The notes beneath the pieces were generated by a model. The model worked only from the letters and a program-made list of their open reading frames with translations. It was not told the origin of the DNA and did no database searches. From Escherichia coli (lineage in GTDB: Bacteria > Pseudomonadota > Gammaproteobacteria > Enterobacterales > Enterobacteriaceae): DNA of 1,343 bases. The stretch lies in assembly GCF_003334405.1 (NCBI RefSeq), contig NZ_QOWM01000045.1. One strand, written 5' to 3'. This document shows positions 1-1,343 of the stretch, piece after piece (within the stretch, counting starts at the first letter, position 1; each line of letters begins with the position of its first letter). The translations under genes were made by a program, and so were the position numbers.

Positions 1-25
1 CCCATAAGCGCTAACTTAAGGGTTG
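1..25. repeat. Terminal inverted repeat (end distal to the transposase start, adjacent to its 3' end)
   Basis: Bases 1-25 (cccataagcgctaacttaagggttg) are the exact reverse complement of 1319-1343; complementarity breaks at position 26 versus 1318. The repeat contains internal palindromes AGCGCT (7-12) and CTTAAG (15-20). The literature, as I recall it, quotes about 23 bp for IS186, so the outermost bases could be target-derived; this cannot be resolved without flanks. Confidence 0.9.
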
Positions 26-43
26 AACCATCTGAAGAATGCG

Positions 44-76
44 ACGCCTCGGTGCCTCGTTAAGACGATGCCTCGC
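44..76. repeat. Cluster of three direct GCCTCG repeats in the left subterminal non-coding region; function unknown
   Basis: Seen in sequence: GCCTCG at 46-51, 54-59 and 70-75, in the contexts acGCCTCGg, gtGCCTCGt and atGCCTCGc. By manual scan I found no other GCCTCG or CGAGGC elsewhere in the window. Three copies of a hexamer within 30 bp is unlikely by chance in 1.3 kb. The cluster lies between the transposase stop (174) and the left repeat. Confidence 0.55.
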
Positions 77-173
77 GTTCTTCAATTGCGTTTTGTAGGC
101 TGTCAGGGATACTGTCCCACGAATGGCCACCTGTAAGCTCCAGATGACCATTTTTGTTATTCTCCACAACGAG

Positions 174-1286
174 TTAGTTCTTCTTTTCGGATCCGGCACT
201 TCTGGGGGGGAAATCCAGCGATGGCTGGATTATGTCGTCAATTAAAAATGCGGCGAGTAGATTAGCAAATATCCACGCTTTCGCGAGTTCAGGTTCCTTT
301 GCACGCAAAGCATCCAGGTGCAGCAAACTTTTGAGCCGCTTAAAAGCCAGTTCAATTTGCCATCGCAGACGGTAACAATCAGCCACTTGCTCTGCTGAAT
401 ATTCATCTTCCGGTAATGATGTTAGCAATAGCACATGGCCCGCTGCTTCCAGCGTTTCCGCCTGAACTACTCGTCCTTTTCGACGATTCTCGCTGAGCAG
501 TCGGGTTTTACTGATTAATGCTTTTTCGGGAGGAAGTGATACGGCAATGAGACGTGCCGGAAAGGGAGCTCCGGCTTTTTTATTACCTGAATTGCCTATC
601 ATTACAGTGGTTTCACCGTTCTTACCGCAATCCAGCCCGCGCAGAAAACCCATCATGTCAAAGCGCATTCCTTCTGCAGTTAACCAGCGCAATCCTCGCC
701 AGTGAACCCGGACGATATAATCAGCTTCTCCAAAAGCAAGTGAGCGGATACATTCGGGACGCGAACCGAATCCCCGGTCAGCAATGCGTATCTCGTCTGC
801 CGTTTGCGCAAATCGGTCCAGCCGTTCAGCGTCTCTGCTGTCGGTTAGCTCAAAATCAGTGAACTGACAGGTATGAGGATCATATCCCATATGTAGTCGC
901 CATTCAGCGCTGCCGCCCCCGGGCGCACTGATTGCTGTTCCATCGACAAGACGCAATCTCTTTCCGCTTGTACAACCCGTAACTGCGGCGCGTACAGCAA
1001 GTGTTTGTGCGGCAAGTATGCCAAACCAGTCGGCGGCATTCCGCAGCCGCTTCAGGAGAGCCACGTCAGATAATGTTGCAACGTCATGGAGCTGAGCCCA
1101 TGCAGTGACTTCACGTAATGACATCCCCCCGGGGCCGTAAGCCAGCCCCAGACGTAGCAGAGTTGCAGCATCACGAATTTCGCGGCGGCGGGTTAGAGCC
1201 CCGGCATTACGTGCCGAAGTATCCAGTTCTTCGGGCTTACCAATATGGGCCAGAATTGCTGACCAGTTATCGTGAGAGTAATTCAT
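174..1286 (-). CDS. insL: IS186-type DDE transposase (IS4 family), 370 aa, apparently intact
   Basis: Seen in sequence: uninterrupted minus-strand ORF with ATG at 1286-1284 and TAA stop at 176-174. The track ORF (174-1292) begins two codons earlier at an in-frame GTG (1292-1290). The product from the ATG starts MNYSHDNWSAILAHIGKPEEL, which I recall as E. coli IS186 InsL. Candidate catalytic residues by analogy with IS10/Tn5 (transposase numbering): D115 in LVDGT (codon 944-942), D170 in IADRGFG (779-777), E312 in YRLRWQIELAFKRLK (353-351). The Y-(2)-R-(3)-E-(6)-K signature spans 374-339. The N-terminal third is basic (TRRREIRD...MSLREVTAWAQL), consistent with a DNA-binding region. Confidence 0.93.
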   Translation of the reverse strand: MNYSHDNWSAILAHIGKPEELDTSARNAGALTRRREIRDAATLLRLGLAYGPGGMSLREVTAWAQLHDVATLSDVALLKRLRNAADWFGILAAQTLAVRAAVTGCTSGKRLRLVDGTAISAPGGGSAEWRLHMGYDPHTCQFTDFELTDSRDAERLDRFAQTADEIRIADRGFGSRPECIRSLAFGEADYIVRVHWRGLRWLTAEGMRFDMMGFLRGLDCGKNGETTVMIGNSGNKKAGAPFPARLIAVSLPPEKALISKTRLLSENRRKGRVVQAETLEAAGHVLLLTSLPEDEYSAEQVADCYRLRWQIELAFKRLKSLLHLDALRAKEPELAKAWIFANLLAAFLIDDIIQPSLDFPPRSAGSEKKN

Positions 1287-1318
1287 CGGCACGTTAAATC
1301 ATATCAGGCGTAATACCA

Positions 1319-1343
1319 CAACCCTTAAGTTAGCGCTTATGGG
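1319..1343. repeat. Terminal inverted repeat (end proximal to the transposase start)
   Basis: Bases 1319-1343 (caacccttaagttagcgcttatggg) are the perfect reverse complement of 1-25. The transposase ATG lies 57 bp inside this end, so any native promoter or 5' UTR must overlap or abut this repeat. Confidence 0.9.

Follow-up and report, generated by a model that had tools for sequence, protein, structure and literature searches.

Does the transposase gene of a familiar insertion sequence (IS) end where annotation ends it? The question is raised by a stretch of Escherichia coli DNA of 1,343 nucleotides (assembly GCF_003334405.1, contig NZ_QOWM01000045.1), called the window here, which is IS186, a 1339-bp cut-and-paste element of the IS4 family (IS231 subgroup). 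Its transposase, InsL, is annotated as 370 residues by all annotation pipelines, and RefSeq, with the Prokaryotic Genome Annotation Pipeline (PGAP), gives it no C-terminal extension. An earlier account of the window, made from its letters only (the sequence-only reading), had held the element to be well described and had expected anything of interest to lie in its flanks. This was not borne out, as comparative evidence places a conserved +1 site and a 63-codon extension inside the window. Programmed +1 recoding of insL, with the long form most likely the active transposase, is the best explanation that we have found and, judged from comparison and structure prediction, a probable one.

A candidate shift site and an open +1 frame at the end of insL

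The regions that raise the question are the following.

174–1286, minus strand: insL zero-frame open reading frame (ORF), 370 residues from ATG, stop TAA at 174–176; the single long ORF.
177–229, minus strand: frame overlap of 53 nucleotides (nt), the only stretch where a +1 shift gives an open product; bounded by the stops at 230–232 and 174–176.
201–210, minus strand: proposed +1 shift site, a C7 run (204–210) read as TTC CCC CCC, then AGA (201–203).
11–202, minus strand: +1-frame extension of 63 codons (14–202), EVPDPKRRTNSLWRITKMVIWSLQVAIRGTVSLTAYKTQLKNARHRLNEAPRRRILQMVQPLS, with its stop TAG (11–13) in the inverted repeat.

The zero-frame product matches Pfam DDE_Tnp_1 (PF01609, 3.6e-26) and NCBIfam transpos_IS4_1 (133 bits, cut-off 115). 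Its catalytic Asp-Asp-Glu (DDE) residues, D115 (942–944), D170 (777–779) and E312 (351–353), are invariant or nearly so in the family, and the Y-(2)-R-(3)-E-(6)-K (YREK) signature, YRLRWQIELAFKRLK, is formed by Y305, R308, E312 and K319 (window 330–374). Since the triad and the signature all lie in the zero-frame part, a shift would add a C-terminal module rather than complete the catalytic domain.

The overlap is closed upstream by a +1-frame stop, TAA at 230–232, and downstream by the zero-frame stop, with the C-run inside it. A fusion product with a +1 shift at the C-run was modelled as InsL 1–361 followed by 63 residues, 424 in all. Its junction reads DFPPEVP (junction peptide ...SLDFPPEVPDPK), and the zero-frame tail of IS186 beyond the site is RSAGSEKKN. 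The tract itself was compared in 24 independent copies, where it is G7 in 21, G6 in two and G8 in one. The two G6 copies are synonymous (TTT CCC CCC) and keep the same frames, and the E. albertii copy, TTT CCC CCC AGA, is likewise synonymous. In L103, a metagenome contig, a G8 tract would put the downstream region in the −1 frame; a sequencing error or a dead copy could account for it.

Split and fused relatives

The hidden frame has counterparts among the relatives of IS186. In a word-indexed search of 5.8 billion protein clusters, single-ORF relatives of 425–442 residues align with 96–98% of the fusion at 41–43% identity; closer relatives, of 356–384 residues, cover merely 84–85% of it. The alignment is continuous through the junction, DFPPEVP in IS186 standing against AFPPEHP in P0067, and the family alignment has seven invariant columns in the +1-encoded part (S372, W374, R375, A387, I388, E410 and R415). 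Coverage of the fusion stays at or below 87% for every protein in this database with 85% or more identity to InsL, so annotation never joins the two frames.

Searched exhaustively with phmmer, 1.84 billion representatives yielded 5129 matches, which fall into the same two classes. Among the 226 near-complete family proteins, homology is lost at residue ~361 in 181 and read through in 45. From these we took, as an independent split set, 173 representatives whose identity to IS186 is below 85%. The pair of residues at the break is PP in 97, SP in 49 and FP in 9, so that a Pro codon stands last in 155 of the 173 (90%). The zero frame then continues with a stop codon in 51, with W in 41, C in 31 and S in 25; UGA, UGG or UGY thus follows in 71%, the stop being UGA in the three clusters checked as DNA. 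The zero-frame tail past the site, 0–86 residues long, is not conserved.

The position of the shift is kept in 10 elements, at 31–100% identity, as CCC CCC N or UUU UUU U. The sites are given below by identity to IS186; L009 is an element from a Chloroflexi metagenome-assembled genome (MAG).

IS186: TTC CCC CCC AGA
89% relative: TTC CCC CCC GGA
83% relative: TTT CCC CCC TGA
79% relative: ATT CCC CCC TGA
71% and 66% relatives: TCT CCC CCC TGA
60% relative: TCT TCC CCC TGA
47% relative: ...CCC CCC TGT
44% relative: ...CCC CCC TGG
L009 (31%): ACT TTT TTT TCA

The AGA of IS186 is one base from the UGA of the 83% and 79% relatives. Past the site, the +1 frame is open to the end of the element in eight of nine relatives (the contig of the ninth, P0012, stops short), and runs into a conserved segment, SLWR...AI.G...EPPRRR, giving fusions of 423–437 residues. 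In nearly all of the relatives its stop is a TAG within the terminal repeat. A 96% relative (P0003/L141), with TTT CCC CCA GAC, reads through in one frame and has only conservative changes in the extension.

L009 (JAAENC010000225.1, 1–1535) is a distinct element of the IS186 clade. Its transposase is 31% identical to InsL, and at one end it keeps 22 of the 22 nt of the IS186 terminal repeat. In both elements ~150–165 nt separate the transposase stop from the repeat, and a same-strand ORF in the +1 frame occupies this space. The two small ORFs align by BLASTP with 16/53 identities, ungapped to both C-termini (E = 7e-6), and at the equivalent alignment position the frame overlap holds a homopolymer, C7 in IS186 and T8 in L009. 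Both also end in LS*, but the stops are in different registers relative to the repeat and we regard this likeness as coincidental; the BLASTP and codon evidence is independent of it. The flanks of L009 read GGGG/CATAAG...CTTATG/CCCC (slashes mark junctions throughout), with no obvious duplication.

The substitutions in the extension are those of a coding sequence. IS186 and the 89% relative differ at 38 of the 189 nt past the site, with 11, 5 and 22 differences at the first, second and third codon positions of the +1 frame. Synonymous and non-synonymous changes number 17/14 in this frame, as against 3/26 and 1/28 in the other two; for the 83% relative the figures are 13/25, and 4/36 and 2/39. 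By these sequence comparisons, purifying selection is acting past the site in the +1 frame only. A quick neighbour-joining tree of the shared core (219 tips, no bootstrapping) has at least 11 state changes, with one mostly full-length group and one large, mostly split group containing scattered fused members. This pattern is consistent with a split form that has been kept over the long term and has now and then reverted, and the split arrangement persists down to about 31–35% identity.

Predicted structure of the fusion

The 424-residue fusion was modelled with AlphaFold2 from an alignment of 43 full-length relatives, giving a predicted local distance difference test score (pLDDT) of 90.4 and a predicted template modelling score (pTM) of 0.89. 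In the model the extension forms two helices, 373–389 and 394–408, with pLDDT of 86–95. The top five Foldseek matches in the Protein Data Bank (PDB) are all Tn5 transposase (E = 1.6e-9 to 1.1e-7, ~485–515 aligned columns), followed by the piggyBac and ISCth4 transposases. In its predicted architecture the long form thus agrees with both the uninterrupted relatives and Tn5 transposase, down to the pair of helices at the C-terminus. Tn5/IS50 (PDB 1MUH, 1MUS, 4DM0) is the best whole-chain structural match to the model, and Tn5 and IS186 have the DDE and YREK signature in common; their similarity in sequence is marginal, a PDB search with the family profile matching Tn5 at the YREK region with E = 0.12.

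Proposed recoding of insL

We propose that ribosomes translating insL reach TTC CCC CCC AGA (window 201–210, minus strand) and that a fraction of them shift +1 on its proline codons. The peptidyl-tRNA-Pro would re-pair either inside the run, on CCC_C, or where the run ends, on CCC_A, with the same protein resulting both ways. Shifted ribosomes would read 63 more codons, to the TAG in the terminal repeat, and make the 424-residue protein, most likely the active transposase. Zero-frame InsL, of 370 residues, would be the abundant product; it has the region that binds DNA and all of the DDE/YREK core, and lacks the C-terminal helices. In Tn5 these helices are needed for synaptic-complex formation, and by this analogy the 370-residue form is most likely inactive or inhibitory. 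If so, the efficiency of the shift would set a low ceiling on transposition.

Ribosomal +1 shifting is the favoured mechanism because CCC_UGA is a proven site, a U follows the C-run in most members and one member has just C5. The proof comes from the tsh gene of a Listeria phage and from E. coli pheL, where CCC_UGA shifts at 15% (PMC5009743). We give about even chances to the fuller statement that the IS186 clade makes its full-length transposase by a conserved programmed +1 ribosomal frameshift, mostly at CCC_UGA and in E. coli at CCC_AGA. If so, the IS4 family would have its first transposase that depends on recoding, and the 370-residue InsL would be a C-terminally truncated by-product or regulator without the Tn5-like helices.

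The proposed site can be compared with those of known systems. Shifting at prfB (CUU_UGA), tsh and pheL (CCC_UGA) and yeast Ty1 (CUU_AGG) combines a slippery P-site with a slow A-site codon; relatives of IS186 carry exactly CCC_UGA, and the CCC_AGA of IS186 would be its rare-arginine-codon analogue. As in recoding of the tsh and pheL type (PMC5009743), the shifted product would be a longer, functional-looking protein. Unlike the known sites, those of the IS186 clade vary at the A-site (UGA, UGG, UGY, AGA, GGA), and as the site lies within a C5–C7 run, slippage on CCC_C at a Pro-Pro stall is equally possible. Unlike prfB, IS186 has no upstream stimulator resembling a Shine-Dalgarno sequence that we could find. 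In IS1 (InsA/InsAB') and the IS3 family (OrfA/OrfAB), too, a single gene yields a short product in the zero frame and, less often, a trans-frame transposase, and the shift limits transposition; there, however, the shift is −1 and the catalytic domain is in the downstream frame, whereas in IS186 it would be +1, with the DDE core upstream and a helical module of ~63 residues added. The Tn5 gene also makes two protein forms, one of them a regulator. The Tn5 inhibitor arises from an alternative downstream start and is truncated at its N-terminus, whereas the short form of IS186 would be the unshifted product, truncated at its C-terminus.

Several points weigh against this proposal. Expression of the 424-residue protein is deduced from comparison and structure prediction, the AlphaFold2 confidence in the extension depends on the alignment of full-length relatives, and the dimerisation or synapsis role proposed for the C-terminal helices rests on the analogy with Tn5. 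The A-site codon is not uniformly slow, being GGA in the 89% relative and UGG or UGU in others, and the AGA of IS186, a rare codon in E. coli, also occurs at two other places in insL. No Shine-Dalgarno-like stimulator was identified at the IS186 shift site. The zero-frame product has a complete catalytic core, and the 370-residue form may itself be active.

The novelty of the proposal is also to be weighed. We found no description of a frameshift or of slippage in IS186 or insL in the searchable literature, although earlier notice elsewhere is possible. The GeneTack survey lists three "+1" clusters within DDE_Tnp_1, described as A-rich and put down to transcriptional realignment, without mentioning IS186. 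These unnamed clusters might include the IS186 case; the supplements of Antonov 2013 have no IS186, insL or poly-C entry. A review of the IS4 family describes it as without a frameshift in the transposase gene (PMC2266710). On the comparative evidence the IS186 clade appears to break this rule, and we take "no frameshift" to be a descriptive hallmark of the family that the clade probably violates, not grounds for its exclusion.

Alternative explanations

The same 424-residue product could be made by transcriptional slippage, the RNA polymerase dropping one C (one U in L009). Every element has a homopolymer at the site, C5–C7 or T8, the T8 run of L009 is a classic template, and surveys ascribe many frame transitions in transposase genes to transcriptional realignment. 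Efficient slippage is, however, established for runs of ~8–9 or more A or T, not for C5–C7, and P0039 has just C5. Slippage also leaves unexplained the U that follows the C-run in 71% of the split set (UGA, UGG or UGY), which re-pairing on CCC_U with a stop or scarce-tRNA codon in the A-site does explain. We consider slippage possible, above all at the T8 site, but unlikely.

Alternatively, the 370-residue InsL could be the complete, functional transposase and the open +1 frame a decaying, unexpressed relic of a longer ancestral C-terminus. This agrees with the location of the DDE triad and YREK motif wholly in the zero-frame ORF, with the 370-residue call of every annotation pipeline and with the description of the IS4 family as free of frameshifts. 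A relic should have gathered stops and non-synonymous changes, yet no stop interrupts the frame in IS186 or in any relative whose contig extends to the end of the element, and the synonymous bias is found in the +1 frame only. Nor would decay be expected to place the break of 173 independent cluster representatives at one slippery codon, or to leave the arrangement intact to about 31–35% identity. This explanation, too, is improbable.

The downstream frame could also encode a separate small protein of ~62 residues that starts at a GTG at window 199 and acts together with InsL, and a GTG-initiated ORF of 62 residues is indeed present (199 to 11, minus strand). The start is not conserved, P0010, P0017 and P0039 having neither ATG nor GTG ahead of the SLWR motif; no Shine-Dalgarno sequence is evident; and in homologues the segment is the C-terminal part of a single uninterrupted polypeptide. 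A separate protein is therefore very improbable. Finally, phase variation, in which the C7 tract slips in replication and a subpopulation encodes the fused protein, has in its favour two database variants with fused frames, P0251 (92% identity) and the P0003 sequence described above (96%), but it is scarcely credible, as the three K-12 copies are identical and none of the tract lengths among the 24 copies (21 G7, two frame-keeping G6, one G8) fuses the frames; on these counts we rejected variation of the DNA tract as the main route to the long form.

Ends of the element and its target

The boundaries of IS186, whose terminal repeat holds the +1-frame stop, are as follows.

3–1341, minus strand (transposase strand): IS186 proper, 1339 bp; assigned from identity to K-12, with the boundary from imperfect-target copies.
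3–25, plus strand: terminal inverted repeat at the transposase 3' end, CATAAGCGCTAACTTAAGGGTTG, 23 nt; holds the stop codon of the +1 extension.
1319–1341, minus strand: terminal inverted repeat at the transposase 5' end; a perfect inverted repeat.
1–2, no strand: CC from the target, belonging to the duplicated GG-N6/7-CC; variable at positions −2 and −3 (L030, ACC/ATAAG).
1342–1343, no strand: GG, the target-derived counterpart of 1–2 (L062, CTTAT/GGA; L100, CTTAT/GCT).

The inverted repeats of the window are perfect over 25 nt (1–25 and 1319–1343), of which 23 belong to the element. All three K-12 copies lie in the context GGGG-N6/CCCAT...ATGGG/N6-CCCC, and in this context an element of 1343 bp with a 6-bp duplication cannot be told from one of 1341 bp (8 bp), 1339 bp (10 bp) or 1337 bp (12 bp). 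Species-representative genomes and metagenome contigs were therefore scanned for the 22-nt repeat core, and 146 junctions were gathered. Each of the 88 distinct IS186 junctions has a C directly outside ATAAG; the two bases further outward are other than C in 5 and 8 of them. The sole boundary that fits all 10 complete copies is CATAAG...CTTATG, with 10 bp duplicated, or 11 bp where the target is of the N7 type. An element of 1343 bp (6-bp duplication) is ruled out by L030 and L062, and elements of 1341 bp (8 bp) and 1337 bp (12 bp) by L100, which reads …CTGTAAATCC/CATAAG…CTTATG/CTGTAAATCC…. Since the imperfect-target copies fit one boundary, the element is window 3–1341, and the CC and GG outside it belong to the target; they resemble the repeat because the preferred target is GGGG-N6/7-CCCC. 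The sequence-only reading had the window begin and end exactly on the repeats, with no flanking DNA; the whole element is indeed present, but these limits are off by 2 bp on each side. A 1338-bp core, L039, was rejected as a variant: its 1-nt indels, at window 115, 126 and 151 in a 1.16-Mb long-read contig, were treated as assembly errors.

The target GGGG-N6/7-CCC/ precedes the element in 62 of the 88 distinct junctions. The duplications are of 10 or 11 bp, seen in identical copies elsewhere, as the window has no flanks. This agrees with the target GGGG(N6/N7)CCCC described for IS186 by Lee et al. (PMC5009759) and upholds the earlier expectation of a GC-rich target with a duplication of roughly 10–12 bp. 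Elements of the IS231 subgroup have ends CAT-------AA--TAA and direct repeats of 10–12 bp (Table 1 of PMC2266710). The IS186 end, CATAAGCGCTAACTTAAG, read from window position 3, matches this consensus at positions 1–3, 11–12 and 15–17, and the duplication of 10 or 11 bp is within the range of the subgroup. As for IS186/IS421 of K-12 (InsL), the sequence, the repeats and the 370-residue ORF are the same and identical copies use the same target; what differs is the description, the public one being a 1345-bp feature with a single protein of 370 residues and ours 1339 bp with a putative recoded product of 424.

The 3' ends of relatives of 44–89% identity from other hosts, including alphaproteobacteria (L133–L140), read ...TATG followed by flanks like GG-N6-CCCC. 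On these sequences, the whole clade, and not IS186 alone, seems to prefer GGGG-N6-CCCC targets. An IS186-type end, TATAAGCGCTAACTTAAGGGTTG, was also found in a Verrucomicrobia MAG (L007, JAFEGT010000023.1, 3913–~4186). It belongs to an element of ~270 bp resembling a miniature inverted-repeat transposable element, which has a degenerate partner end and a long inverted repeat inside it; no transposase is encoded close by.

Leader and hairpin

Two further features of the window were noted.

1287–1318, minus strand: short 5' leader between the repeat and the ATG.
33–84, minus strand: stable hairpin inside the coding region of the extension, inverted repeat 33–51/66–84.

The leader has no consensus sigma-70 promoter, a promoter scan having found 0 sites, and no clear Shine-Dalgarno sequence. 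Folded in the mRNA sense, the hairpin has a free energy of −25.7 kcal/mol (z = −4.3). Among the relatives, those at 89% and 83% retain the outer stem, TGAAGAA/TTCTTCA, and distant ones do not. The hairpin might act as a 3' stabiliser of the mRNA or as a barrier to read-through. A terminator scan of the window gave two terminator-like sites, no more than chance, and an Rfam scan of both strands of the window, with E up to 1, gave no match.

Identity and spread

The identification of the window is by itself ordinary. Over its 1343 bp it is 100% identical, with 0 mismatches and 0 gaps, to IS186A, IS186B and IS186C of E. coli K-12 MG1655 (NC_000913 15388–16730, 608008–609350 and 2514274–2515616), which are identical to each other. 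The ORF at 174–1286 maps exactly onto the insL1 coding sequence (15445–16557) with 100% DNA identity, and the transposase is therefore InsL at 100% identity. The sequence-only reading was thus right to call the copy complete and intact, and the comparison with the K-12 copies that it had suggested gave 100% identity over the full length; the marks of a distinct relative that it had named, such as identity to InsL well below about 90%, are absent. An element with exactly this arrangement is demonstrably active in K-12, where 68 new IS186 insertions have been recorded (PMC5009759), so IS186 is not a dead pseudogene.

IS186 was found by megablast in 2221 of 5426 complete E. coli genomes, with a median of 3 copies and a maximum of 22; 7830 of the places are chromosomal and 863 on plasmids. 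Its sequence is present on 1004 plasmids, mostly from Escherichia and also from Salmonella, Klebsiella, Shigella, Enterobacter and Citrobacter. One doubtful "phage" record, OR844776.1 ("Escherichia phage ECO111 5-P"), has a complete, 100% identical copy at 1181–2523; the record is 5129 bp long, unannotated and probably a chromosomal or prophage fragment. Five of the megablast matches are to copies split by an IS1A insertion, for example at NZ_CP069712.1 3382105–3384224 (a span of 2120 bp in two aligned pieces). PGAP names the one element inconsistently, the IS1A-split fragments being called "IS186B family" and the intact protein "IS421 family".

In the scan of species representatives, matches outside Escherichia are mostly E. 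coli contamination or mis-binned contigs. A 210-bp contig of Kocuria tytonicola DSM 104133 (L008) carries the K-12 IS186A flank and Marinobacter sp. B9-2 (L006) the K-12 IS186B flank, and IS186 ends occur also in assemblies of Bradyrhizobium sp. (L010) and of a Collinsella MAG (L011/L012). We rejected horizontal transfer for these five in favour of laboratory contamination with E. coli or mis-binned gut contigs. Four complete copies on metagenome contigs (L020, L024, L034 and L072) have no target duplication, and their two flanks come from different insertion sites, L024 joining the left flank of IS186B to the right flank of IS186A. This mixing indicates recombination between IS186 copies or chimeric assembly.

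Biological implications

IS186 ranks among the four insertion sequences of E. coli K-12 with the highest activity, and mutations that it causes recur when strains are evolved in the laboratory or engineered, as at the lon promoter, fimA and menC. With the boundary corrected to 1339 bp and a 10- or 11-bp duplication, annotation and insertion-calling software need no longer waver between 1337 and 1345 bp. If the transposase is the 424-residue trans-frame protein, insL would be mis-annotated in thousands of genomes, the fused form would be the one to use when the IS186 transposase is expressed or inhibited, and the "no frameshift" definition of the IS4 family would need amending. E. coli K-12 would then hold a previously unannotated recoding event in three copies, one more utilised +1 site, of the CCC_N kind, sensitive to the modification of tRNA-Pro, to elongation factor P (EF-P) and to the supply for rare codons, and the rate of transposition would be linked to translational stress.

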